Source: an uncultured Bacteroidales bacterium (lineage in GTDB: Bacteria; Bacteroidota; Bacteroidia; Bacteroidales; WCHB1-69). Taken from it: a stretch of DNA of 64,000 nt. The notes beneath the pieces are model-generated. The model saw only the letters and a program-made list of their open reading frames with translations. It had not been told where the DNA came from and did no database searches. Within the stretch, counting starts at the first letter, position 1; each line of letters begins with the position of its first letter. A program made the position numbers and the translations under genes. Shown here one piece after another: positions 48,909 to 61,139 of the stretch. The DNA lies in assembly GCA_905233745.1 (NCBI GenBank), contig CAJODA010000003.1, positions 19,576 to 83,575 on the forward strand, written 5' to 3'.

Positions 48909-48942
48909 TTTTTTATGCTTCTTTAATTTCCAATGAAATTTG

Positions 48943-48950
48943 TACATTTG
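48943..48950 (+). promoter_or_regulatory. -7 promoter box TACATTTG upstream of queF
   Basis: TAnnTTTG match 20 nt upstream of the ATG at 48970. Confidence 0.45.
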
Positions 48951-48969
48951 CGCGCTAATTTATTTTAAG

Positions 48970-49440
48970 ATGTCAAGAAACGAAAAAGAATTGGACGGCG
49001 TGACCCTCTTGGGCAACCAGAATACACAGTATAATTATGATTATAACCCGGATGTGTTGGAAACGTTTGAGAATAAGCATCCGGAAAATGAATATATAGT
49101 AACGCTCGACTGTCCGGAATTCACTTCGCTGTGCCCTAAAACAGGACAACCTGATTTCGGCCACATCATCATCAACTACATCCCGCGTTTGCGCATGGTG
49201 GAGAGCAAAAGCCTGAAACTCTATCTCTTCAGCTTCCGAAACCACGGCGATTTTCATGAGGATTGCGTCAATATCATCATGAAAGACTTGATTAAGTTGA
49301 TGGACCCGAAATACATCGAGGTCGTCGGACTTTTCAATCCGCGTGGCGGCATCTCCATCAAACCTTTTGCCAACTTTGGCGATTCGGAACATCAGGATAT
49401 GGTGCGCGCGCGCTTGCTGGCCAATTTTAACCAAAAGTAG
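48970..49440 (+). CDS. queF: NADPH-dependent 7-cyano-7-deazaguanine reductase (type I QueF)
   Basis: About 156 aa. [17 protein letters not shown] with the catalytic Cys, and ESKSLKLYL. Confidence 0.9.
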
Positions 49441-49443
49441 AGA

Positions 49444-50103
49444 ATGATGGAGAAGGACTCACTGATTATTTTTTCCGGTGGAATGGATTCCACTACAATG
49501 CTGTATGAGTATAAGGACAGAATTGCCATAGCCATCACTTTCGATTACGGATCAACACAGAATGCCCGCGAACATGATTATGCTATATTGCACGGTAAAC
49601 GTTTGGGCATCAAACATCTGATTATTCCATTGGATTTCATGCACCGTTATTTCAAAAGTTCACTGTTGCAGTCTCCCGACGACATCCCGGAGGGTAATTA
49701 CGATGATGAGAACATGAAATCCACGGTGGTGCCCTTCCGCAACGGCATCATGCTGTCCATCGCGTGCGGCATAGCCGAGAGCAACGGGCTGACCAAAGTG
49801 CTGATTGCCAACCACTCCGGCGACCACACCATCTATCCCGACTGCCGCCCGGAATTCATAAAGGCCATGTCGGAGGCCATGTCTGCCGGCACCTATGAGA
49901 ATGTGACGGTCTTTGCCCCCTATACGCTGCTGAGCAAGAAGGACATCGCGCTGCATGGCAAGGCGTTGGGACTGGACTACAGCGAGACCTACTCCTGCTA
50001 CAAGGGTGGGGAGCACCATTGTGGCAAATGCGGCACCTGCTGCGAACGCCGCGAAGCCCTCCGCGAGGCCGGCATCCACGACAAGACAGTGTATGAACGG
50101 TGA
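49444..50103 (+). CDS. queC: 7-cyano-7-deazaguanine synthase
   Basis: SGGMDSTT PP-loop and the C-terminal zinc cysteines CYKG..HCGKCGTCCER. Confidence 0.93.
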   Translation: MMEKDSLIIFSGGMDSTTMLYEYKDRIAIAITFDYGSTQNAREHDYAILHGKRLGIKHLIIPLDFMHRYFKSSLLQSPDDIPEGNYDDENMKSTVVPFRNGIMLSIACGIAESNGLTKVLIANHSGDHTIYPDCRPEFIKAMSEAMSAGTYENVTVFAPYTLLSKKDIALHGKALGLDYSETYSCYKGGEHHCGKCGTCCERREALREAGIHDKTVYER

Positions 50104-50343
50104 ATGGTAAACGGTGAATGGTAAACGGTGAATGGTGAACGGTGAATGGTGAACGGTGAATGGTGAACGGTGAATGGTGAATGGTGAACGGTGAATGGTG
50201 AACGGTGAATGGTGAATGGTAAACGGTGAATGGTAAACGGTGAATGGTAAACGGTGAATGGTGAACGGTGAACCTTGAACCTTGAACCTTGTACCTTGTA
50301 CCTTTCACCTTGAAACTTGAAACTTTTAAACTTTTAACTCTAA
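50101..50343. repeat. heptamer ladder tandem array (about 34 units) between queC and queD
   Basis: ggtgaat/ggtaaac/ggtgaac units repeat about 25 times. They then change stepwise, mostly in doublets: cttgaac x2, cttgtac x2, ctttcac, cttgaaa x2, cttttaaa, cttttaac. The array ends at the queD ATG. Confidence 0.9.
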
Positions 50344-50697
50344 ATGTATTACGTACGAAAAACCTTAGAAATCTCCTCTTGCCACCAGTTGTATCTCGAC
50401 TACGAGAGCAAATGCGAGAACTTGCATGGTCATAATTGGAAAATCAATGTGTATTGCCGTGCCAAGGAATTGGACAGCAACGGTATGGTGTGCGATTTCA
50501 CGGAAATCAAACGGCTGATCCATGGCAGGATAGACCATAAGAACTTAAACGAAGTACTTGACTTCAACCCCACGGCCGAAAATTTGGCCAAATGGATTGT
50601 GGATACGGTGCCCAACTGCTACCGTGCGGATGTGTGGGAGTCTCGCGACAACAAGGCCTCCTACATGGCGGACGATGTCGTTCAAAATTTCGAATGA
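50344..50697 (+). CDS. queD: 6-carboxytetrahydropterin synthase
   Basis: 117 aa. CENLHGHNWKI zinc and catalytic motif, typical QueD size. Confidence 0.9.
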   Translation: MYYVRKTLEISSCHQLYLDYESKCENLHGHNWKINVYCRAKELDSNGMVCDFTEIKRLIHGRIDHKNLNEVLDFNPTAENLAKWIVDTVPNCYRADVWESRDNKASYMADDVVQNFE

Positions 50698-51287
50698 TGT
50701 ATCCGATTAACGAGATATTCTATTCGCTTCAGGGAGAGGGTTACCATACCGGTACGCCCGCCGTGTTTGTGCGCTTCAGCGGGTGCAATTTGCATTGTGC
50801 CTTCTGCGATACGGACCATCGGGAGTCTAAACCTATGACCTCAAGCGAAATTATAGATGATATCGCACAATATCCTAATGCACAGCTGATTGTGCTAACG
50901 GGTGGAGAGCCGTCGCTGTTTGCCGATGATGAATTTGTGCATGCGTTGAAAACCAAGACCGGTCTGCCGGTGACAATCGAAACCAACGGTACGCGCGTGC
51001 TTTCGGAGGGCATCGACTGGGTGACGCTATCACCGAAGGAGGCGTTCGAGGGTGGGGGAGTTGTGCCCTGTGTGCTCACCCGCTGCGACGAACTCAAAGT
51101 GGTGTATTGCGGACAGGATTTGGCGCAGTATGACCATATCGAGGCCAAGCATCGTTTCTTGCAGCCCTGCTACAGCGACGACCCGCTCCAATGTCAGGCC
51201 AACATGGCGGCTTGCGTGCAGGCGGTACTGAACCACAAAGGGTGGCGGTTGTCGTTGCAGACGCACCGGATATTGGGGATACGGTGA
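50694..51287 (+). CDS. queE: 7-carboxy-7-deazaguanine synthase (radical SAM)
   Basis: [40 protein letters not shown] is the QueE N-terminal signature. The ATG overlaps the queD stop (ATGA). Confidence 0.9.
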   Translation: [197 protein letters not shown]

Positions 51288-51392: not shown

Positions 51393-51447
51393 AATTAGAG
51401 ATGCCTGAAATCTTATTTTCGCGAAAATAGGTTTCGTGATTTATTCG

Positions 51448-51455
51448 TATTTTTG
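51448..51455 (+). promoter_or_regulatory. -7 promoter box TATTTTTG upstream of the WYL regulator
   Basis: TAnnTTTG match 22 nt upstream of the ATG at 51477. Confidence 0.45.
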
Positions 51456-51476
51456 CGGCTGAAAAATCGAAACATT

Positions 51477-52535
51477 ATGCCCGCAAACAAAAACGCTGTC
51501 ACACGCTACTACATTCTCGACAAGTTGTTGGCCAACCGTTACCACAACTATTCGACTGAGGATTTGTGCCGGTTGGTCAACGAGGAGTTGGAGGAAAGGG
51601 AACAGCATGTAAGCCGTCGAACCATTGAACTTGACCTTCATTATTTGGAATACGAAAGCCCTTTTGTCGCTGAAATAGAGCATTATCAGATTGATGATGT
51701 AAGTCCACGAACTCTCAAGACGATCAAGAAAAGTTGCCATCGTTATGCGGATCCATCGTTCTCCATCTTCACGCAGAAGCTTACGGATGACGAGAAACAT
51801 CTGCTTGGCGAAGCCTTCACCCTCCTTGGGCAATTTGACGGTCTGCCGAATCTTGAGGGTTTGGAAAGGCTCAGGGAAAGTCTCAAAGTGAAGACCGACC
51901 GCCAGATTGTGTCGTTCACTAAGAATCCTTTGGAAGGAAAGAGTTTGCTGGGCGAGTTGTTCACTGCCATCACGCAGAAACAGGTGGTGGAGTTGCATTT
52001 CCACAAGTTCGACACGCCAGATACAGACCGTGTGGTGGTCGTTTATCCCTACTTGCTCAAGGAGTACAACCGTCGCTGGTACCTCATCGCTGCTGCCGAA
52101 GATACGGGCAAGCTGCTCAGCTTCGCCCTCGACCGCCTGGACAAGTTCGTCCCGTTGCCCGCACGTCATTATAAGGAATACGATGGCGACCTCAACGAAT
52201 GTTTCGAGGACATCATCGGAGTGACGCTTATCGAAGGCAATCCATTGCAGACCATCCTCTTCTGGGTCAGCGACAATTCCAAAGATTATGTTGCCACAAA
52301 ACCCTTGCACGAGTCCCAGCGGCATTATAAAGGAGAGAAGGAAAAGGAATTGCGCCAACAATACCCGAAGCTTGACGGTGGCGCGTTCTTCTCCATTGAG
52401 TGCATCGAGAACTACGAACTGATCCGGGAATTATCGTCTTTCGGCAAAGAGTTGTTGGTTCTTTCACCCACTGACATTCAGCAGAAAGTGCGCGACCGTC
52501 TGACCGCCCAACTTCAAGCGTATCAGGCATTGTGA
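51477..52535 (+). CDS. WYL-domain transcriptional regulator (N-terminal wHTH; BrxR/CapW-like architecture)
   Basis: N-terminal MPANKNAVTRYYILDKLLANRYHNYSTEDL...VSRRTIELDLHYLE (wHTH). Central NRRWYLIAAAEDTGKLLSFALDRL contains the WYL motif. A C-terminal extension follows. Confidence 0.8.
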   Translation: MPANKNAVTRYYILDKLLANRYHNYSTEDLCRLVNEELEEREQHVSRRTIELDLHYLEYESPFVAEIEHYQIDDVSPRTLKTIKKSCHRYADPSFSIFTQKLTDDEKHLLGEAFTLLGQFDGLPNLEGLERLRESLKVKTDRQIVSFTKNPLEGKSLLGELFTAITQKQVVELHFHKFDTPDTDRVVVVYPYLLKEYNRRWYLIAAAEDTGKLLSFALDRLDKFVPLPARHYKEYDGDLNECFEDIIGVTLIEGNPLQTILFWVSDNSKDYVATKPLHESQRHYKGEKEKELRQQYPKLDGGAFFSIECIENYELIRELSSFGKELLVLSPTDIQQKVRDRLTAQLQAYQAL

Positions 52536-52710
52536 TTTTTTGTATTTTTGCATCTCGCTAATCCTATAGAAAGATGATTGATAAGATATTTCAATGATAA
52601 CCATCCTGGTGTTTCAGCGATAACCACTACTTGAGTATATGGTAGCCCATGGTGAGAAAATTGGCACAGAGGAAAGAAAATGAGCGAAAATAGATTGCGC
52701 GGCACCGTTG

Positions 52711-52718
52711 TATTTTTG
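52711..52718 (+). promoter_or_regulatory. -7 promoter box TATTTTTG upstream of the ATPase gene (a second box lies at 52543-52550)
   Basis: TAnnTTTG match 28 nt upstream of the ATG at 52746. Another exact TATTTTTG sits at 52543-52550, just after the WYL gene stop. Confidence 0.45.
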
Positions 52719-52745
52719 CAAACGAAAAAACAAACAGAGAAGAAT

Positions 52746-54362
52746 ATGGAAAATAACAAAAACATGAACCCGGTTTTCAGTCTGAAAAACTTCCGCTCTT
52801 TTGGCGAAGAAGGTGCCGATTTTGAACTCGCCCCTATCACCATTTTGACCGGATGCAATAGTGCCGGCAAGAGTTCTATGGCAAAAGCACTTGTGCTATT
52901 AAGCCGAATGCCTAATCACAGAAGAGTCGTATCGCCCTCATTAAAACTCTACACAAAAGACCTCAGACTTGGTAACTATGAGAAGGTGCTTCATAAAAAC
53001 GCGGCTGACAATGAGATAGTATTTGCATATAAAGTATGGTCTAACTATCTTCAAGAAGATGTTCGTGTCAAGCGTTTTTTCAAGTCTAAGAAGAACGACG
53101 ATCTTAATGATGGTTTTTTGTACAAGTACACCATAGAAAAAACTGATGGAACAATAATCTTTGAAGAAAACACAACCCTTTGGGGAATGGAACATGAAGA
53201 ACAAAACAATAAACACACAGATTCTATTACTCAAAATTTCAATGCTTTCTCTTTGGTAAGTAAATACCATCAATTAGTTCAAGAAATTGATTTACTAAAA
53301 AAAAGAGATAACGAAGAGTCTCAAAACGAATATGCTCATTATTCCCAAGAGTTAAAAAGCATCATGTCACAAATACAAGTAAGCGAAATCAATGTTGAAA
53401 TGTATAATATCAGACAGCTATCAGACTGGCATGACTGGATATTCAGCAGAGACCAAAGAATAAAGAACAAGAGACGTTACTGCAAGACTGATGAAGAGTT
53501 TAAGGAACTTTTGGCGGCACAATACCCAGAAAGACAAATAATAGAACATTTTTTGGAATTGGTTGCAGATGAAGTGTTTTCTCCCAAGTTCATTGAAAAT
53601 GTGGAATATATTGATTCGGGTTCAGCAGCAATCAGACGCACTTATTCTGTTGAGGACAGCAATAAAATGAGCAAGGCTTTGTTTGATTTTAATAGTGCGA
53701 AAATAATCGATGAAGAGTGGTCCGATATTTTTCATCCATATTATCATAAACCAGGCAGTTTTGTGAACCATTGGCTGGAAGAATTCCTTGGCAATGGTTG
53801 TAAAATTTTTACAACAGGCGATGATGAAGGACGCATTAAAGTGTTTATTGAAAGAAATGGTGAAAAACAATTGCTTGCAGACGAAGGGTATGGTATCACC
53901 CAACTCGTTTCTTTGCTTTTGTTAATAGACAATTCTATTAAGCCAACCGACGAGAAAAATCCTCAAACACCATGGCATGACGGCAAACCAGATCATAAAA
54001 ATCTCTATTTTGAAAGACATCCTCAAGTAATTTGTGTTGAGGAACCCGAAGTTCATCTCCATCCGAAATACCAATCATTGTTGGCAGATATGTTTGTGGA
54101 AGCATACCAGAAATACAACATCCACTTCATTATTGAAACTCACAGCGAATATCTTATTCGCAAACTTCAAGTTATGGTTGCAGATAAGGAAAATGCTATT
54201 GTGCCAAATGATATTTCTTTAAATTATGCGGAAAAAAATGAAATTACCGGAATGTCTTCCAATCGAAAGATAGAAATATGCGCAGACGGTTATCTTGATG
54301 ATACATTTGGCGAAGGATTCTTTGATGAAGCAACGAAGTGGTCTAAAAAGCTTATTTTATAA
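52746..54362 (+). CDS. ABC/SMC-head-like AAA ATPase (AAA_15/AAA_21, DUF3696-type)
   Basis: N-terminal FSLKNFRSFGEEG..ITILTGCNSAGKSS (Walker A at 52851-52874). C-terminal VICVEEPEVHLHP (Walker B / D-loop) and FIIETHSEYLIRKL (H-loop). The start at 52746 (MENNKNM) is preferred because of the promoter box; the ORF track start is 52680. Confidence 0.8.
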   Translation: MENNKNMNPVFSLKNFRSFGEEGADFELAPITILTGCNSAGKSSMAKALVLLSRMPNHRRVVSPSLKLYTKDLRLGNYEKVLHKNAADNEIVFAYKVWSNYLQEDVRVKRFFKSKKNDDLNDGFLYKYTIEKTDGTIIFEENTTLWGMEHEEQNNKHTDSITQNFNAFSLVSKYHQLVQEIDLLKKRDNEESQNEYAHYSQELKSIMSQIQVSEINVEMYNIRQLSDWHDWIFSRDQRIKNKRRYCKTDEEFKELLAAQYPERQIIEHFLELVADEVFSPKFIENVEYIDSGSAAIRRTYSVEDSNKMSKALFDFNSAKIIDEEWSDIFHPYYHKPGSFVNHWLEEFLGNGCKIFTTGDDEGRIKVFIERNGEKQLLADEGYGITQLVSLLLLIDNSIKPTDEKNPQTPWHDGKPDHKNLYFERHPQVICVEEPEVHLHPKYQSLLADMFVEAYQKYNIHFIIETHSEYLIRKLQVMVADKENAIVPNDISLNYAEKNEITGMSSNRKIEICADGYLDDTFGEGFFDEATKWSKKLIL

Positions 54363-54366
54363 AGAG

Positions 54367-55455
54367 ATGAAATATAGGAAAAACATATATTGTGAAAAAG
54401 AATTCATCAGAATGTGCATTGAAAAATTGGAGGCATCAGATACATTTTGCAATCCCGATGAATGGCTGTTAATAAATAGAATAAAAGATATTATAAGTGA
54501 TACATACACAAAGCTATATCTCAACATGTCAAACGATGAGATAAACGAATTTTCGAAAGACATATACAAGCGTAAGGTAAAAGCAGCAAAGAAAGATGAA
54601 TGTGCAGATTTATCTTCTTTCGAACGGTTTATGTATGCTCTATTCATGAAGCAACAAAACGGAGAACTTCAAATAAAACATTTCGATGATGTTGATTTTG
54701 ATAACGAGGATGAAATTGATTTAAATGGCTACTATTTTACATGTAAAGATCGCGAGCAATGCGAAAAGGCTATGGGTGGATATGGCGTTCTGGCAATAAA
54801 CATGGAAAACATTAAAGATTTTGGCTTTGTTTTAAAAGACAATGGGAAAGCTATTCGTGATAATTCAAAAAACACTTGGAAATCATTATTGGAGTCCGTT
54901 GGTAAATTGCCCTATAACTCAATAATAATCATTGACAACTATATACTAAATGATACAGATGAAATGGTTGAAAATTTGCAAGGTATTTTTGATTCATTGC
55001 TTCCGTCCAGTATCAGTGTGCCAATCCAGATAACAATATTCTCAAAAATCAGAACAGATAAAAGCACCGATCTACCTGTTGAGCCTAGATTGGAAAAAAT
55101 AAAAGAATTGTTACAAAAGTATAATTCATTTTCTTTTGAAGTGACCATCGTTAAGTGTCAAAATTTTCATGACCGAGCAATATTGACAAATTCCATGTTC
55201 TTTGGGTGTCCTGGAGGATTTAACCTGTTTAAGCAAGGAAAATCTCAAAAAACAACCTATTTTAATGCGGCAAATCCCTTTCTGGGGAGTGAGAGTATTA
55301 AATGGACGACTGGGGCATACTCAAATTTCGTTGCAGATGCAGCTGATGTTTTCCAATCCCTAAAGGAATATGGGAGTGAAGGAATAGACGATTCTTTTCC
55401 TCAGTTCTACAACGGGGAAAAAAAGAATAGGATTCTTGATGGTTTTAAAGGTTAA
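54367..55455 (+). CDS. uncharacterised partner of the ATPase; the C-terminal half may be a MIT_C/PLD-like domain
   Basis: 362 aa, starting 5 nt after the ATPase stop. Motifs SIIIIDNYIL ... FHDRAILTN ... GCPGGFNLF resemble, from memory, the DPY...HDRxI...GRGLDxF pattern of the PLD-like MIT_C domain. This assignment is speculative. Confidence 0.65.
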   Translation: MKYRKNIYCEKEFIRMCIEKLEASDTFCNPDEWLLINRIKDIISDTYTKLYLNMSNDEINEFSKDIYKRKVKAAKKDECADLSSFERFMYALFMKQQNGELQIKHFDDVDFDNEDEIDLNGYYFTCKDREQCEKAMGGYGVLAINMENIKDFGFVLKDNGKAIRDNSKNTWKSLLESVGKLPYNSIIIIDNYILNDTDEMVENLQGIFDSLLPSSISVPIQITIFSKIRTDKSTDLPVEPRLEKIKELLQKYNSFSFEVTIVKCQNFHDRAILTNSMFFGCPGGFNLFKQGKSQKTTYFNAANPFLGSESIKWTTGAYSNFVADAADVFQSLKEYGSEGIDDSFPQFYNGEKKNRILDGFKG

Positions 55456-55797: not shown

Positions 55798-55805
55798 TAT
55801 TTTTG
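55798..55805 (+). promoter_or_regulatory. -7 promoter box TATTTTTG upstream of the DUF1848 gene
   Basis: TAnnTTTG match 20 nt upstream of the ATG at 55825, after a 370-bp intergenic gap. Confidence 0.5.
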
Positions 55806-55824
55806 CAAAGTCAAAAACAAGACT

Positions 55825-56889
55825 ATGTCCCAGTGGAAAAAAATAAAGATTCAGCGTGATAAAGGCGAAATGGTGGAAGCACAGGCCCCTGTCATTGTCT
55901 CTGCAAGCCGGAGCACCGACATACCGGCATTCTATGCCGACTGGTTCTTCCATCGGTTGAAAGTGGGCTACTCTGCGTGGAAAAATCCCTTTAATGGGGT
56001 AAACAGTTACATTTCCTATCAAAACACCCGTTTCATTGTGTTTTGGTCGAAGAACGCGAAGCCGTTACTACAGCATCTTGATGAGCTGAAAGACAGAAAC
56101 ATTGGTTGCTACATTCAACATACGTTGAACGACTATGAGAAAGAAGGGTTGGAGAAAGGAGTGCCCCCGTTGGAGGAAAGAATTGACACGTTCAAACGAT
56201 TGGCGGACAAGCTAGGGAAAGGTCGGGTGATATGGCGTTTCGACCCACTGATTCTCACAAACCAAGTCAACATTGACGAACTGTTAGGGAAAATCGAACA
56301 CATTGGCGACCAACTATATGGCTATACGGAGAAGTTGGTGTTCAGCTATGCCGATATCGCTTCCTACAGGAAAGTGAAAGCCAATCTGGAGAAGAACCAC
56401 GTCAACTACCGAGAATGGGAACCTGATCAGATGGAAGATTTTGCGGTCCGGCTTTCAACACTCAACCAAAAGTGGAACTACAAATTGGCCACCTGCGGTG
56501 AGAAAATCGACATTGAAAAGTACGGCATCTTGCACAACAAGTGCGTGGATGACGACATAATCATTCGTTTCGCTTATAAAGACAAAACTTTGATGGAGTT
56601 TCTTGGTGTGGATGTGAAAACTGTCGAGAATTCCTTGTTTGGCACAGAACCTATTCCCGAAAATGCCATCATGCTCAACGCCACCCAATACGCCATCAAG
56701 CGAAAGAACAATAGCGACAAGGGTCAGCGTCAGTTCTGCGGCTGCATCGCAAGCAAGGACATTGGCGAATACAACACCTGTCCGCACCTTTGCGAGTATT
56801 GCTATGCGAATGCGAGCAAGGAGGTAGCGGTGAGTAATTGGGAAAGACACGAAACCAATAAACTGGGCGAAACAATAACTGGAAGGTAA
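55825..56889 (+). CDS. DUF1848-family protein with a C-terminal radical-SAM-like CX3CX2C cluster
   Basis: N-terminal VIVSASRSTDIPAFYADWFFHRL, VFWSKN and IWRFDPLI match my recollection of DUF1848. The C-terminus FCGCIASKDIGEYNTCPHLCEYCYAN contains CX3CX2C at 56779-56802. Confidence 0.8.
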   Translation: MSQWKKIKIQRDKGEMVEAQAPVIVSASRSTDIPAFYADWFFHRLKVGYSAWKNPFNGVNSYISYQNTRFIVFWSKNAKPLLQHLDELKDRNIGCYIQHTLNDYEKEGLEKGVPPLEERIDTFKRLADKLGKGRVIWRFDPLILTNQVNIDELLGKIEHIGDQLYGYTEKLVFSYADIASYRKVKANLEKNHVNYREWEPDQMEDFAVRLSTLNQKWNYKLATCGEKIDIEKYGILHNKCVDDDIIIRFAYKDKTLMEFLGVDVKTVENSLFGTEPIPENAIMLNATQYAIKRKNNSDKGQRQFCGCIASKDIGEYNTCPHLCEYCYANASKEVAVSNWERHETNKLGETITGR

Positions 56890-56925
56890 TTATGAGATCC
56901 TGAACAATAATTAAATTTGATTTAC

Positions 56926-59436
56926 ATGGACACTCAAGAACTGATAAGGTACTGCACTTCGTTACTTCCTGACAACATAAAGGCTCGACCATGGGATGCC
57001 ACAAATCACGGCAGAGCTATTTTGCAAACAGAAGAACAGTTGAATGCTTACATTGCAGCATATGGTGAGATGCACTTCATCAAGTGTAGAGCGGCATTGC
57101 AGAATTTCCCGTTTGAAACTCTAACCAACTACGAAATAGTGGATTGGGGATGCGGCCAGGGTATAGCATCGCTTACTTTGCATGACATGCTCGAAGAGCA
57201 CGGGAAAGCATACGGGTTGAAACGCATAACGCTCATTGAGCCGTCCGAGCCTGCCTTGCGGCGAGCAGAGGCATTTGTGAAGCGTACTATAGACCACAGA
57301 GTGGAGGTTATCGCCATTAACAAGTGCATCCCCAGTTCAGAGGAGTCCAACGACTTGTCGGAGATTACGTCATCGGCACCGATGGCCATCCATCTCTTTT
57401 CAAATATCCTTGATATTCGGACATTGAATTTGAGATGGCTGGCAAAGAAGGTGGCTTCATTCACGAGAAAACAGCAGATAGTGTGTGTGGGTCCAGCGAT
57501 GAGAGGAGAAAGCCGCATTTCAGACTTTGCAAGTTTCTTCCCAGAAAAAAATGTCTTTTCGAGGATTTCCCAATATCCGTATGCATACACGGTGACGCAC
57601 CATCCTTTTGGATGCGAAACGATGTGCTTTTCTTTGTCCTCCAACAACATCAACGAGAGTTACGTCGAGAAGGCGGATGCAGCCACATTCATTGATGACT
57701 ACAGTTATGTGGCGGAATCGTTAAGGGGGATTGTTGATGACAACATCCTCAACGCATACAACGCCATGCGAGCCAAGTTGAGTAATTTCGACAGCATCTT
57801 CATTCAGCCTCACATATCAACTGATATTCCAGACATTGTGGTAGTGAGGCCAGGAAAGGGTATGCTAATCTTCAATGTCTGCAATGATAAGAATAATGCG
57901 GAAGCTCAATTTGAGAGAACGGAAGTCTATCAACGTAACTTGTTTAATGTACATCTACGGGATGTTTTTGGAAAAGCCTTGTTGGATAAGTGTTATTGGT
58001 CGGTCATCAAGCAGGCTGTTTTCTTCCCGACAGAGAAGGACGGGGAGGGAATCAAGGTGAACAAAGAGTACAAACATACATGTCGAATTTATAGGGATGA
58101 TATACTGGCTAACGATCTCCTTGAAAAATTGAACCTTTCTTGGGATAACAGGTATTTCACTGACAATTTGTGCAAGAATGTGTTGGAACTCATAACCAGT
58201 AAGGGATGGCATAGTTACAAGGAAGGCAATGAAAGCATTACACCCACAAAAAGGCAGCGCGAACTGGCGCAAAGCAAGAGTGTGGATCAGAAGATTAAGG
58301 GTGTTGCAGGATCGGGAAAGACTCAAGTCCTTGCATGGAGGGCTGTGAATGCCCAGGTCAGAACAGGAGGCAGAGTGCTTGTACTGACGTTCAACCTTAC
58401 TTTGGTGAACTATATCAAATACAGAATGAGTCAGGTCGCCGCCGATTTTAACTGGAGTCAATTTGATATTACCAACTATCACCAATTTTTTAAGTCGCAG
58501 GCGAACAACCATAATTTGAAGCCTTACATTGACGATTGGGACGACGAAAACTTCTTTGAGCGATATAAGAATCGTACTATGCGATATGACACCATCCTTT
58601 TCGATGAGGCACAAGATTATAGATACGCATGGTATCTTGTGATAAAAAACTACTTCCTCAAAGAGGGAGGCGAGTTCGTCGTTTTCGGTGATGGCAGGCA
58701 AAATATTTACAGCCGTCAGCAAGATGAACATCACATGCCTCGGATTCCTGGAATGCCAGGACCTTGGACTCAAATAAACGAAAATTCAAATGTCGCTTTT
58801 AGAATTGAGAATCCAGAAATAACCCGTCTCTCCACACTCTTTCAGGAGTCGTTTTTCGATTACTCTGAGCCGTTGGCACAACAGAGCATACTTCCTTTCG
58901 AGCAATTCCACATTAAATATTGGAATGTAGGGAGTGCTATTACCGCAGGAACGCTTTGCTCCAATGTTTTATGGATAATAAATGAGTTCAAACTGAATCG
59001 TCGGGATGTGACGTTACTCTCTCAGACATGCAGCGTTCTCCGAAGTATCGAGGATGCATACATCAAGAATGGTGGAGAACGGCCAATTACAACATTTGAA
59101 ACCAAGGAGGAGTATGATAGGATACAGGCTGTCAGCAAGTGGCCGAAAGCTGATATTGACAGCATTCGTAGAGTAAAAAAGGTTCATTTTACGATAGACT
59201 ATGCAGGCATAAAGATGGCTACAATACACAGTTTTAAGGGTTGGGAGTCCCCTACGATTATTTTGATTCTACAGCCCGATGGCTCAATTGAGGATGATGT
59301 GTACAATGTTGTTGAAAACGAGAACTCTCCGGCTTTGATTTATACTGCTATCACACGAGCAAAGCGGAACCTTTTCATTCTTAATCTTGGTAATAGCAAA
59401 TATCACGATTTCTTCATAAACAACATAGAATCATGA
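56926..59436 (+). CDS. three-domain fusion: class I SAM-methyltransferase-like N-terminus, NERD-like middle, SF1 (UvrD/helicase IV-like) helicase C-terminus
   Basis: MTase motif I IVDWGCGQG (57136-57162), with an acidic residue after beta-2 (LIEPSE). The middle segment DIPDIVVVRPGKGMLIFNV resembles NERD. Walker A GVAGSGKTQ (58300-58323). Walker B ILFDEAQDY (58594-58617). C-terminal SF1 motifs ATIHSFKGWE and IYTAITRAKRNLFIL. Confidence 0.85.
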   Translation: MDTQELIRYCTSLLPDNIKARPWDATNHGRAILQTEEQLNAYIAAYGEMHFIKCRAALQNFPFETLTNYEIVDWGCGQGIASLTLHDMLEEHGKAYGLKRITLIEPSEPALRRAEAFVKRTIDHRVEVIAINKCIPSSEESNDLSEITSSAPMAIHLFSNILDIRTLNLRWLAKKVASFTRKQQIVCVGPAMRGESRISDFASFFPEKNVFSRISQYPYAYTVTHHPFGCETMCFSLSSNNINESYVEKADAATFIDDYSYVAESLRGIVDDNILNAYNAMRAKLSNFDSIFIQPHISTDIPDIVVVRPGKGMLIFNVCNDKNNAEAQFERTEVYQRNLFNVHLRDVFGKALLDKCYWSVIKQAVFFPTEKDGEGIKVNKEYKHTCRIYRDDILANDLLEKLNLSWDNRYFTDNLCKNVLELITSKGWHSYKEGNESITPTKRQRELAQSKSVDQKIKGVAGSGKTQVLAWRAVNAQVRTGGRVLVLTFNLTLVNYIKYRMSQVAADFNWSQFDITNYHQFFKSQANNHNLKPYIDDWDDENFFERYKNRTMRYDTILFDEAQDYRYAWYLVIKNYFLKEGGEFVVFGDGRQNIYSRQQDEHHMPRIPGMPGPWTQINENSNVAFRIENPEITRLSTLFQESFFDYSEPLAQQSILPFEQFHIKYWNVGSAITAGTLCSNVLWIINEFKLNRRDVTLLSQTCSVLRSIEDAYIKNGGERPITTFETKEEYDRIQAVSKWPKADIDSIRRVKKVHFTIDYAGIKMATIHSFKGWESPTIILILQPDGSIEDDVYNVVENENSPALIYTAITRAKRNLFILNLGNSKYHDFFINNIES

Positions 59437-59741
59437 GCAATTTTAGCGAACAGGAAAAGAGGACAATACTCCATCTCCTCACCATGATAATGGAGGCGGA
59501 TTCAGTAATCCATCCCAAGGAGGTGGAATACATCAAATCCGTAATGAAGAATTTTGGACTTTCATCTGCTGAATTTGATCATATGGATATGCTTGATTTT
59601 GCTGTCCTAAAAAAAGAATACAGTATGATGAATAAGGAAAAACAGGACTTTGCAAATGATATATTTTTGAATATGGCAAAAATTGACGGAAATATCCATT
59701 GTAACGAAAGGAATATTATTAATAGTCTACAACTAACATAG
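59433..59741 (+). CDS. small TerB-like protein
   Basis: 102 aa. The ATG overlaps the helicase stop (ATGA, 59433-59436). EKRTILHLLTMIMEADSVIHPKEVEYIKSVMKNFGLS resembles the TerB / DjlA-N helical repeat pattern (from memory). Confidence 0.55.
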   Translation: MSNFSEQEKRTILHLLTMIMEADSVIHPKEVEYIKSVMKNFGLSSAEFDHMDMLDFAVLKKEYSMMNKEKQDFANDIFLNMAKIDGNIHCNERNIINSLQLT

Positions 59742-59962
59742 AAGAACTGCTCAATGGGAAGGCGGTAGAGAACGATGTTGAGCTTATGAATAATCCGTCC
59801 CTGCTACTTTATAGGAACGACCATTCACTTACCTATCAAAATGGCAGATTTATTTAGTTTTTTATGAGAGTCTGTTGATTCATGTGTGAGAAATGCGGCA
59901 AACGGTACAAACAAATAATCAGATAAATTTGATTTAGAATTAATTATTCAAAAAAATAAAAT

Positions 59963-60568
59963 ATGGATTCACAATTACAGGTATCAACAATCAGGGAAAT
60001 AGTATTAAGTAAGGGTTTGTTAAACGCCCATGGTCAAGTTAAATCAGAGTTAATCCAAGAAGACATGTCTCTTATAGGCTTTGTGCCTTTTTTTGAAGGA
60101 GCTGATTTGCCTCATGATATATATTCAACATTGTTGCAATGTGATTTAAATACTCATCTAATAGTCACTCCTTTTTTTATTCGGTATAGTGACGATAAAA
60201 ATATATATCCTGTTTTTAAATCAATTTCTTTAACTAATGGTAATAAGTATAAAGTTGACAAGAATTTGATAATTGAATCAATTTATGGTTCATGGGCTAA
60301 AGGTGCTCAACGACCTCTTTATGGTGATTCTATTCTTTCAAAGAGACGCTACAACGGTTTCCCTTCTGACAGGTTTGAAACAGATGAAAACCAAGACACT
60401 TATTATTTATCTGGAAAACAGGAATTTGTCATGACAGAATCTTTGGGAAAACTTGTCGGTATTTCAGATTACTTCCTTTGCTTGTGTTCGTTCATCAATT
60501 CAGTAACAGGGATACCCAGTTATACTGTTTTTATGCCAGATTACTTGATAAAAGTCCTCCCAAAATAA
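59963..60568 (+). CDS. hypothetical protein
   Basis: 201-aa ORF, AT-rich, no motif recognised. Confidence 0.5.
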   Translation: MDSQLQVSTIREIVLSKGLLNAHGQVKSELIQEDMSLIGFVPFFEGADLPHDIYSTLLQCDLNTHLIVTPFFIRYSDDKNIYPVFKSISLTNGNKYKVDKNLIIESIYGSWAKGAQRPLYGDSILSKRRYNGFPSDRFETDENQDTYYLSGKQEFVMTESLGKLVGISDYFLCLCSFINSVTGIPSYTVFMPDYLIKVLPK

Positions 60569-60574
60569 ATTACT

Positions 60575-60982
60575 ATGACTGACTTTTATTATTTTGACAA
60601 TGTTTTTTCTACATTTCAATTTGGGAAACATAAAAGTAAACCATTATTTCAAATTTTAAGGGAGGATCCGTCTTACATATATTGGTGTGTAAACAATATT
60701 GAAGCATTTATTATTAGTGAAGAAACATTGGAGCAAATTAGAGGTTTATTTCCGTCTTTTATTATTCCAGAGAATTTTGAATCACATATCGGTGAGCCTT
60801 ATGTGGAATGTGAATATTATAATGAAAAAAGGTGTGAAGATAATTATTATGGAAGAGATAAAGAAGATCACACATTTGAAAGATACAATGGATCTTATGC
60901 ACAAGACGAGATGGAATATAGCGATGATGATATAGATACCATATTTGATGGTGATCCTTTAGCATATTGGAATATTGATTGA
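60575..60982 (+). CDS. hypothetical protein with an N-terminal DUF3820 / ExoX-C-terminal-like motif and an acidic tail
   Basis: FQFGKHKSKPLFQILREDPSYIYWCVNN resembles the FGKHKG...DPxYLxW motif. The C-terminus is rich in E/D/Y. Located 6 nt after the previous gene. Confidence 0.5.
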   Translation: MTDFYYFDNVFSTFQFGKHKSKPLFQILREDPSYIYWCVNNIEAFIISEETLEQIRGLFPSFIIPENFESHIGEPYVECEYYNEKRCEDNYYGRDKEDHTFERYNGSYAQDEMEYSDDDIDTIFDGDPLAYWNID

Positions 60983-61095: not shown

Positions 61096-61103
61096 TATTT
61101 TTG
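61096..61103 (+). promoter_or_regulatory. -7 promoter box TATTTTTG
   Basis: TAnnTTTG match 37 nt upstream of the ATG at 61140. It is preceded by a C-rich ladder-like tract at 61037-61086. Confidence 0.45.
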
Positions 61104-61139
61104 CGCCGGTTAATAATTGCAAGTAAGAGTGCTCATATT

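Follow-up and report, generated by a model that had tools for sequence, protein, structure and literature searches.

What does an ABC-type ATPase do beside a small protein that fits no nuclease family, and with which defence system does such a pair belong? The question was raised by a locus in a 64,000-nucleotide (nt) stretch of DNA from an uncultured Bacteroidales bacterium (GenBank assembly GCA_905233745.1, contig CAJODA010000003.1, positions 19,576 to 83,575), which is called the window below. An earlier reading of the letters, the original prediction, had proposed a variant or new two-gene module in which the ATPase is joined by an effector, possibly of the phospholipase D (PLD) type, and had compared it with Septu, PARIS, Gabija and Lamassu. 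In this study, the locus was identified as a conserved WYL-ATPase-PLD unit, a relative of Menshen that falls outside that system for want of NsnA. We regard it, with moderate confidence, as related to the Menshen anti-phage system, regulated by WYL and independent of NsnA. The comparison held for the logic of an ATPase with a small effector, but the nearest system was Menshen and not one of the four named. The module is a variant; calling it a new system was an overstatement, the effector type being already described. The pair was found as proposed, but the unit really consists of three genes, the WYL regulator sharing a conserved candidate operator with the pair. The three genes are:

51453-52535, plus strand: WYL + WCX transcription regulator, BrxR/CapW-like (Pfam WYL 4e-11 and WCX 6e-6; PADLOC WYL 1.4e-20)
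52746-54362, plus strand: NsnB-like ABC ATPase, AAA_15/AAA_21 with a DUF3696 C-terminal tail, 538 amino acids (aa), short-insert form
54367-55455, plus strand: partner, 362 aa, from ATG 54367

The ATPase and partner genes were intact and on the same strand, with a gap of 4 nt between the ATPase stop codon (54360-54362) and the partner ATG. The open reading frame (ORF) of the ATPase extends over 52680-54362, and translation from ATG 52746 (MENNKNMNPVF...) gives the 538-aa form, the length recorded in NCBI/ENA. Both the N-termini of 13 homologues and a box at 52711-52719 that resembles a promoter element point to ATG 52746, or possibly 52764, as the real start. Codon 52680 was rejected as the start, the promoter box falling within that extension. 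An N-terminally truncated ATPase was also rejected; the shorter length reflected a shorter internal insert common to a subclade. Position 52543, from which the module had been said to run, was no gene boundary and fell in the 210-nt intergenic stretch past the WYL stop at 52535, on a TATTTTTGC box.

The pair was AT-rich and lay behind a WYL regulator, as had been described: its GC content was 35.3%, against 49.7% in the remaining window, and that of the WYL gene was 49.5%. The pair was AT-richer than its flanks in most related loci as well (mean 36% vs 44% GC). It may have been acquired horizontally, and the low GC content relative to the flanks was counted in favour of this.

A total of 106 related loci (given L numbers below) were collected by contig look-ups, a genome scan and a metagenome scan, and were analysed with hidden Markov models from the window's proteins. 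The partners formed 81 clusters at 90% identity. The ATPase was directly upstream of the partner on the same strand in 75 of the 77 clusters with at least 200 nt upstream, mostly with a gap of −20 to +16 nt. The partner was thus linked to the ATPase across non-redundant loci, a point on which the original prediction had asked for a survey. The WYL counts were based on the 38 clusters in which the ATPase was complete and the sequence reached more than 1.1 kb upstream. A WYL homologue was directly upstream of the ATPase in 25 of them (23 on the same strand) and directly downstream of the partner in 4; it adjoined the pair in 29/38 and was present anywhere in the locus in 32/38. In loci without WYL, a YhcG/DUF1016 nuclease or housekeeping genes were the neighbours. 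The source genomes that carry a name all belonged to Bacteroidota of rumen or gut. The search of plasmid and phage collections with the partner by tblastn gave no match, and the scan of viral contigs gave no relative; therefore, there was no sign of a phage- or plasmid-borne origin.

The ATPase and its partner protein

The ATPase of about 538 aa had been described with Walker A GCNSAGKSS, EEPEVHLHP, ETHSEYL and a long insert, and all of these were found. In Pfam it matched AAA_15 (5.7e-25), AAA_21 (1.1e-15) and, at the C-terminus, DUF3696 (6.8e-5; 23.5 bits with a cut-off of 22). The best PADLOC model was NsnB of Menshen (7e-41, model positions 6-343 of 345), followed in the ranking by PDC-M55A, AriA and HEC-03B. 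The AriA model matched at 1e-26 and the PtuA models at about 1e-11. NsnB was the top PADLOC family for 14/14 ATPase homologues. Invariance was judged on an alignment of 14 homologues, with the following results:

52851-52877, plus strand: Walker A GCNSAGKSS, residues 36-44; G36, N38, G41, K42 and S43 invariant
53874-53894, plus strand: signature-motif region LADEGYG, GxG for SGG; L377, D379, G381 and G383 invariant
54039-54050, plus strand: Walker B EEPE, E432-E435, within VEEPEVHLHP; invariant
54135-54152, plus strand: H-loop ETHSEY, E464-Y469; invariant
54201-54338, plus strand: DUF3696 tail, residues 486-531, DGYLDDTFGEGFFDEATKWSKKL; top conservation outside the ATP site

In the same alignment, an invariant Arg (R298) stood at the Q-loop position, and DGYLDDxFGEGFFDEA of the DUF3696 tail was invariant. 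The stretch from Walker A to the signature was hypervariable in both sequence and length. Homologues were mostly 680-770 aa long; the window protein and its subclade (L008, L027 and L026) were 528-552 aa long. When PDB sequences were searched with a profile of the ATPase family, the nearest solved relatives were an OLD-family ATPase and PtuA; the PDB sequences searched included no Menshen structure. The phmmer search of PDB sequences with the ATPase gave no match.

The 362-aa partner began right after the ATPase stop and carried SIIIIDNYIL, FHDRAILTN and GCPGGFNLF, all as described. It had been said to have no recognisable nuclease motif, which agreed with the absence of a significant family match in Pfam, NCBIfam and PADLOC. 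The PHROGs search gave a single weak match, to a family without known function, and the only Pfam match at E ≤ 10, Tweety, was rejected as spurious. The parts of the partner are:

54367-54894, plus strand: residues 1-176, N-terminal domain of alpha/beta type; weakly PIN-like, without a conserved set of acidic catalytic residues
54895-55455, plus strand: C-terminal MIT_C-like PLD-fold domain and C-terminal extension; MITD1 fold matches
54934-54942, plus strand: D190-N-Y192 (IIDNYIL), corresponding to EDPYI of MITD1; D190 invariant
55168-55191, plus strand: H268-D-R270-x4-N275, HKD-like; Arg replaces Lys and Asn replaces Asp

The partner family was obtained by a HMMER scan of 1.84 billion representatives at E ≤ 1e-3. 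It contained 488 clusters at 50% identity, nearly all of 320-400 aa, and a family of this size argues that the genes are not chance ORFs. A second protein search with a wide partner profile added almost no members.

The proposal that the effector is PLD-like, of the MIT_C type, was supported alike by homologues, family profile and fold. Pfam MIT_C (PF16565) matched 10 of 16 close partner homologues (best 3.9e-6). The profile of 65 family members matched MITD1 (4a5z_A) at E = 0.0022, and the alignment paired ivDnYI with IEDPYI, fHDRtIiTNn with IHDREIRFNN, and GaGFdLfkk with GRGLDYFKK. The 65-sequence profile was needed; a narrow 16-sequence profile found nothing real among PDB sequences. The three-dimensional structure of the partner was predicted by AlphaFold2 with a pLDDT of 83.6 (local distance difference test, predicted). 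The Foldseek search with this model gave MITD1 (2ymb_D, E = 6e-6; 2ymb_A and 4a5z_A, probability 1.00 and a template modelling (TM) score of 0.55-0.58 on the target over about 160 residues), which answered the question of fold put by the original prediction. Bona fide PLDs (7wu1, 3hsi and PLD3) were also matched. In the model, D190 follows strand 185-189 and H268-D-R270 precedes strand 270-274; no membrane segment was predicted. As judged from the model and the profile comparisons, the C-terminal half of the partner is an MIT_C-type PLD fold.

Among 65 diverse members, G140, D190, H268, R270 and G284 were invariant, and N275, F285 and T297 were nearly so. The motif HxRx4[N/D] was kept in 160 of the 164 members retrieved without a motif filter, and the HDR motif singled out earlier was thus conserved. 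The invariance or near-invariance of D190, H268, R270 and N275 argues for catalysis. The canonical HKD pattern is HxK(x)4D(x)6G(G/S)xN, and the partner has H268-D-R270-x4-N275-x7-GG-x-N/D instead; Lys is replaced by Arg and Asp by Asn, and one residue is added before GG. The motif is an MIT_C variant that is also present in MITD1 (IHDREIRFNN).

The N-terminal 176 residues were modelled alone (pLDDT 87.9). The Foldseek matches of this domain included HARP, PRORP, Rae1 and Nmd4 in addition to a PIN domain, a weak but consistent signal. Its only invariant residues were C9, F13, G140 and W171, which include no conserved acidic set.

The WYL regulator and its candidate operators

The regulator resembled BrxR and CapW in having WYL and WCX domains, in lying directly upstream of the putative defence operon on the same strand, and in having a candidate palindrome that overlaps the promoter. 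It differed from them in the operator sequence and in the regulated cargo, both specific to this clade. The phmmer search of PDB sequences with the WYL protein gave no match, including to the solved BrxR and CapW structures. The candidate operators and promoter boxes are:

51422-51436, no strand assigned: candidate operator 1, CGAAAATAGGTTTCG, a 15-bp palindrome without mismatch, just 5' of the WYL gene
51448-51456, plus strand: TATTTTTGC box (TAnnTTTG) of the WYL gene, 11 nt past the palindrome
52684-52698, no strand assigned: candidate operator 2, CGAAAATAGATTGCG core of GCGAAAATAGATTGCGC, 5' of the ATPase gene; left half as in operator 1
52711-52719, plus strand: TATTTTTGC putative -7 promoter box of the ATPase-partner operon

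The -7 box overlaps the TTG at 51453, and for this reason ATG 51477 is probably where the WYL gene really starts. The palindrome is 15 bp long (CGAA-N7-TTCG, consensus RCGAACATAGAGTTCGY). The right half of candidate operator 2 was degenerate (TTGCG), and the same form was found in L008 and L027. Perfect copies of GCGAAAATA-N18-TATTTTTGC were present in the window only at 51421-51456 and 52684-52719, with 0.08 expected. Among related loci, the exact CGAA-N7-TTCG stood within the 200 nt upstream of the gene in 23 of 56 distinct cases for the ATPase and in 12 of 36 for the WYL regulator, each with 0.10 expected from shuffling. At 21 of the 23 ATPase sites, TAnnTTTG followed exactly 11 nt past the palindrome. 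The TTCG half was outside the initial search pattern, and its conservation is therefore independent evidence.

TAnnTTTG is the -7 promoter consensus of Bacteroidota/Bacteroides. In the window TATTTTTGC occurred 12 times with 0.8 expected, often at gene starts; the sites include 52543-52551, 55798-55806 and 61096-61104. The first of these, right past the WYL stop, had no palindrome before it. The abundance of the box in the window points to a source genome from Bacteroidota. The scan for sigma-70 promoters and terminators gave counts at shuffle level, the Bacteroidota consensus being different from the one used.

BrxR and CapW are reportedly repressors that control their own gene and the downstream operon. 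The layout found here is that expected for a repressor of its own gene and the ATPase operon, with both sites being candidates predicted from sequence and by analogy. The conserved operator-promoter unit preceded both genes, and the WYL gene is therefore considered functionally tied to the pair.

Relation to Menshen and the proposed mechanism

Menshen is composed of NsnA, NsnB and NsnC (Millman et al. 2022) and was dissected by Li, Tan, Basu, Corbett and Zhang (Nucleic Acids Research 2025, PMC12065111). In that work (PMC12065111), NsnA has ParB-DUF262 and ParBDB and is the proposed sensor; NsnB is an ABC ATPase with DUF3696; and NsnC has an inactive PIN-like N-terminal domain and a variable C-terminal effector. 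NsnB is peculiar in having GxG where SGG is usual, Arg in place of the Q-loop Gln, and EN rather than DE at Walker B. In the Menshen models, the DUF3696 tail clamps the N-terminal domain of the effector. An ABC-ATPase dimer that binds one effector asymmetrically was predicted for NsnB-NsnC and observed in Septu and PARIS. The NsnC class PB-PLD1 has an MIT_C-like PLD domain with D/E after beta2 and HDR before beta5 and is classed with nucleases, and the same MIT_C-like domain is found at the C-terminus of BrxL (all PMC12065111).

The window ATPase was consistent with NsnB in its AAA_15 domain, DUF3696 tail, GYG signature and R298 at the Q-loop position. The effector gene was immediately downstream of the ATPase gene, as in Menshen, and the partner had a toxic-type C-terminal domain, as in NsnC, after an N-terminal domain with weak PIN matches. 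Its MIT_C-like domain with the D/E and HDR motifs resembled PB-PLD1. The locus differed from Menshen in several respects. The PADLOC NsnC model missed the window partner and matched 3 of the 65 family members (the BrxL model matched 5 of 65). The clade seemed to be limited to Bacteroidota of gut and rumen. The upstream position was occupied not by NsnA but by a WYL/WCX regulator, which shares a candidate operator with the pair.

NsnA was absent from the window, where the upstream gene was WYL/WCX, and from about 80 related loci. Neither DUF262 nor ParB-DUF262 was found by Pfam in 30 neighbouring genes of related loci. The motif DGQQR, which we take to be the hallmark of DUF262, was absent from all window ORFs; in the 106 loci, it was present only in one unrelated 104-aa ORF and in none adjoining the pair. 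In the literature searched, the Menshen paper was the only one that links an MIT_C-like domain to an ABC-ATPase defence system (PMC12065111), and the NsnA-less, WYL-linked form was not described in searchable papers. Earlier publications already cover the class of the ATPase, the architecture of the effector and the potential of this PLD subtype to act as a nuclease.

The pair was also compared with other systems. It resembled PARIS in the two-gene logic of an ABC ATPase (AAA_15/21) and an effector, here a putative nuclease, with no separate sensor subunit. In PARIS (AriA/AriB), sensing falls to the ATPase, and the effector that it releases becomes active as a dimer; this was taken as a likeness to the mechanism proposed below. 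The partner has a PLD fold and not the DUF4435/Toprim of AriB, for which Pfam and PADLOC gave no match; a WYL regulator is present; and the ATPase, with its DUF3696 tail, is closer to NsnB than to AriA. Septu and retron-linked PtuAB share the same broad ABC ATPase family holding a small nuclease, but the similarity was weaker, no PtuB-type HNH match was obtained, and the effector fold is PLD-like. GajA of Gabija is an ABC ATPase fused to Toprim, with the UvrD helicase GajB encoded next to it, and Toprim is missing from the window ATPase. A helicase of the UvrD-like type, which matched GajB models, lay 2.5 kb downstream and was present in only 4/38 related loci. Membership of Septu, PARIS and Gabija was rejected, their effector domains being absent.

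Outside ABC-ATPase systems, a functional precedent for the fold is DruE of type III Druantia, in which two MITD1-like PLD domains form a DNA-nuclease site (Asp, His, Asp-Arg and His-x-Arg), and mutants of this site lose both single-stranded DNA degradation and defence (bioRxiv 10.64898/2026.05.13.724313). The partner shares the MITD1-like PLD fold and the Asp, His and Arg residues with DruE, a DNA nuclease that is auto-inhibited until triggered. In DruE, two PLD-like domains are fused to a large SF2 (superfamily 2) helicase, whereas the partner is a single, stand-alone PLD domain linked to an ABC ATPase. The MITD1 MIT_C domain (PF16565) and BrxL have the same fold and the DxY...HDR...GxGxDxFKK motifs; BrxL is a Lon-like AAA+ protein and is not paired with an ABC ATPase.

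The following mechanism is proposed. The WYL/WCX protein would bind the 15-bp palindrome, which before both the regulator gene and the ATPase gene overlaps the promoter's -33 region, and would keep both genes low until a ligand of stress or infection releases the repressor. The NsnB-like ATPase would oligomerise, and its DUF3696 tail would hold the PIN-like N-terminal domain of the partner, so that the effector stays monomeric and inactive. Without a ParB-type sensor, the ATPase itself may detect the infection cue, most likely through the hypervariable insert between Walker A and the signature, as in PARIS. An ATP-coupled change would then release or reposition the partner. The single PLD domain of the freed partner (D190, H268, R270 and N275) would pair with that of a second copy to give a two-motif active site, and the paired partner would cut nucleic acid, most likely DNA, and stop the phage or the infected cell. 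The dimer was proposed because PLD-family active sites need two HKD-type motifs and the DruE site spans two domains. A sensor-less Menshen branch in this full form, with a self-sensing NsnB-type ATPase, a WYL transcriptional gate and a stand-alone HDR PLD nuclease activated by dimerising, is put forward tentatively, its chances being a little short of even.

Several points weigh against the Menshen-relative reading. The window partner itself reached no Pfam threshold, PF16565 included, and the MIT_C link rests on homologues, the family profile and the predicted structure. The motif was HxR...N rather than the canonical HxK...D. MITD1 is a eukaryotic, ESCRT-III-binding and membrane-binding protein with no shown catalysis, and it is not paired with an ABC ATPase. 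The PIN match of the N-terminal domain was weak; the best was the AF0591 PIN domain 1o4w, with a probability of 0.95, E = 0.015 and a TM score of 0.43. The Walker B of the window ATPase was EE, in contrast to the EN reported for NsnB, and the partner was matched to the published description of PB-PLD1, not to PB-PLD1 sequences. The absence of NsnA covers the 64-kb window and short contigs, and a sensor may be encoded elsewhere in the genome. The surveyed loci were all Bacteroidota, and the picture may be clade-specific. Binding and repression by the WYL protein, sequestration by the ATPase, activation as a dimer, nuclease activity, its substrate and the defence function are all steps that we infer.

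In the published model of Menshen, sensing is assigned to the ParB-like NsnA. The loci form a large clade in nature that retains NsnB and an effector like NsnC but never NsnA, which implies either that the ATPase can sense by itself or that sensing has moved to a WYL regulator. If the sensor-less branch is real, NsnA would be dispensable for NsnB-NsnC signalling. The locus could then also be the simplest system available for asking if MIT_C domains, those of human MITD1 and BrxL among them, have enzymatic activity. The partner is a minimal stand-alone HDR-type MIT_C PLD, a domain for which nuclease activity has only just been demonstrated, within DruE. With the operator-promoter unit as a handle, further WYL-controlled defence operons could be sought in Bacteroidota; few defence systems have been tested in this phylum, which is important in the gut.

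Alternative readings and neighbouring genes

The PLD-like domain might not be a nuclease. It might bind or hydrolyse membrane lipid in the manner of MITD1 and kill by membrane damage, or act as a non-catalytic adaptor. The closest solved structure was the MITD1 domain, a membrane-binding PLD-fold domain according to the title of Hadders et al. 2012 as given in PMC12065111; phospholipases and phosphatidylserine synthase were among the fold matches (7wu1 and 3hsi), and the partner motif departs from canonical HKD. This reading is unlikely. The polar set D190, H268, R270 and N275 is invariant or nearly so, arguing for catalysis; the partner model has no predicted membrane segment; and the N-terminal domain weakly matches PIN, a nucleic-acid-binding fold. 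Furthermore, DruE has MITD1-like PLD domains that act as a DNA nuclease, a finding supported by mutants, and PB-PLD1 was classed among nucleases by Li et al. (PMC12065111).

Three genes downstream of the pair gave rise to another alternative:

55825-56889: DUF1848 protein (3e-91)
56917-59436: helicase of 839 aa, with an N-terminal methyltransferase-like VDWGCGQG, a NERD-like middle part and a UvrD-type SF1 (superfamily 1) helicase
59433-59741: TerB-like protein of 102 aa, overlapping the helicase gene

The helicase matched the PADLOC model 'NERD+UvrD' at 9e-31 and also the RTasHel and GajB models. The pair could be the front half of a five- or six-gene system with DUF1848, the NERD/UvrD-type SF1 helicase and TerB-like, in which a PLD nuclease works with a helicase as in DruE. 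The order WYL-ATPase-partner-DUF1848-helicase-TerB, with tight or overlapping junctions, was found in L007, L029 and L032/L033, the partners of which are only 38-40% identical. DUF1848 was near the pair also in L001, L005, L045, L057 and L102, and a PIF1/RecD-like helicase was directly downstream in L001, L011 and L015. This reading is nevertheless rather improbable. DUF1848 was present in only 6 of the 38 loci with at least 4 kb downstream and the UvrD-like helicase in only 4, and many loci were flanked by housekeeping genes instead of DUF1848-helicase-TerB. In L001 and L057, DUF1848 lay beyond the WYL gene, on the far side. In the window, DUF1848 had its own TATTTTTGC box (55798-55806) after a 369-nt gap. 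Across loci, DUF1848 was 62-74% identical, against 31-45% for the pair, and its history looks separate. From these comparisons, DUF1848-helicase-TerB seems to be a candidate defence module in its own right, carried along with the pair in one subclade.

A decayed Menshen that has lost NsnA and is non-functional, or is kept only as a toxin-antitoxin-like addiction pair, would explain two proteins homologous to Menshen components without NsnA and a short-insert ATPase of 538 aa instead of the usual 680-770 aa, but it is very improbable. In the 81 clusters, the lack of NsnA is the rule, and yet the ORFs are intact, the residues of the ATP site and of the PLD domain are invariant, the genes are translationally coupled and the operator is conserved; pseudogenised remnants would lose these features at 25-40% identity. 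The short insert is common to the subclade of L008, L027 and L026 and is not a one-off deletion.

The NsnA-independent Menshen relative remains the favoured reading of the locus, and its surroundings were examined as well. A second AT-rich stretch (59433-60982, 32% GC) contained the TerB-like gene, a 201-aa protein without a family match and a 135-aa protein, the N-terminus of which matched ExoX-like_C (8e-11). On the other side, 48940-51287 contained QueF-, QueC-, QueD- and QueE-like queuosine precursor genes (by translation) and ligA, housekeeping genes that form the left boundary of the island. Judged by composition and gene content, the island likely extends from the WYL gene to about 61 kb, where the GC content returns to about 50%.

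The related loci gave several further observations. The window partner was 71-80% identical to the partners of L008 and L027, whereas the adjoining ATPases were only 43-45% identical. The divergence of the two genes is thus uneven, which is suggestive of recombination inside the cassette or of an ATPase that evolves much faster. A YhcG/DUF1016 PD-(D/E)xK nuclease gene was immediately upstream of the ATPase gene in L011 (5775-6785), L052 (54-1094) and L008 (266-802, a fragment); in L011, it stood between the WYL gene and the ATPase gene. The PIF1/RecD-like SF1 helicases directly downstream of the partner were located at 7652-9694 in L001, 10280-12262 in L011 and 1720-3774 in L015. The L015 helicase carried TBP-TOTE (4.6e-19) at its C-terminus, and this domain marks TOTE conflict systems. 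Tandem copies of the pair, with WYL genes nearby, were found in L075 (1745-4827 and 5965-8987) and L079 (1-3105 and 6618-9723); their arrangement points to local duplication or to stacking of divergent alleles.

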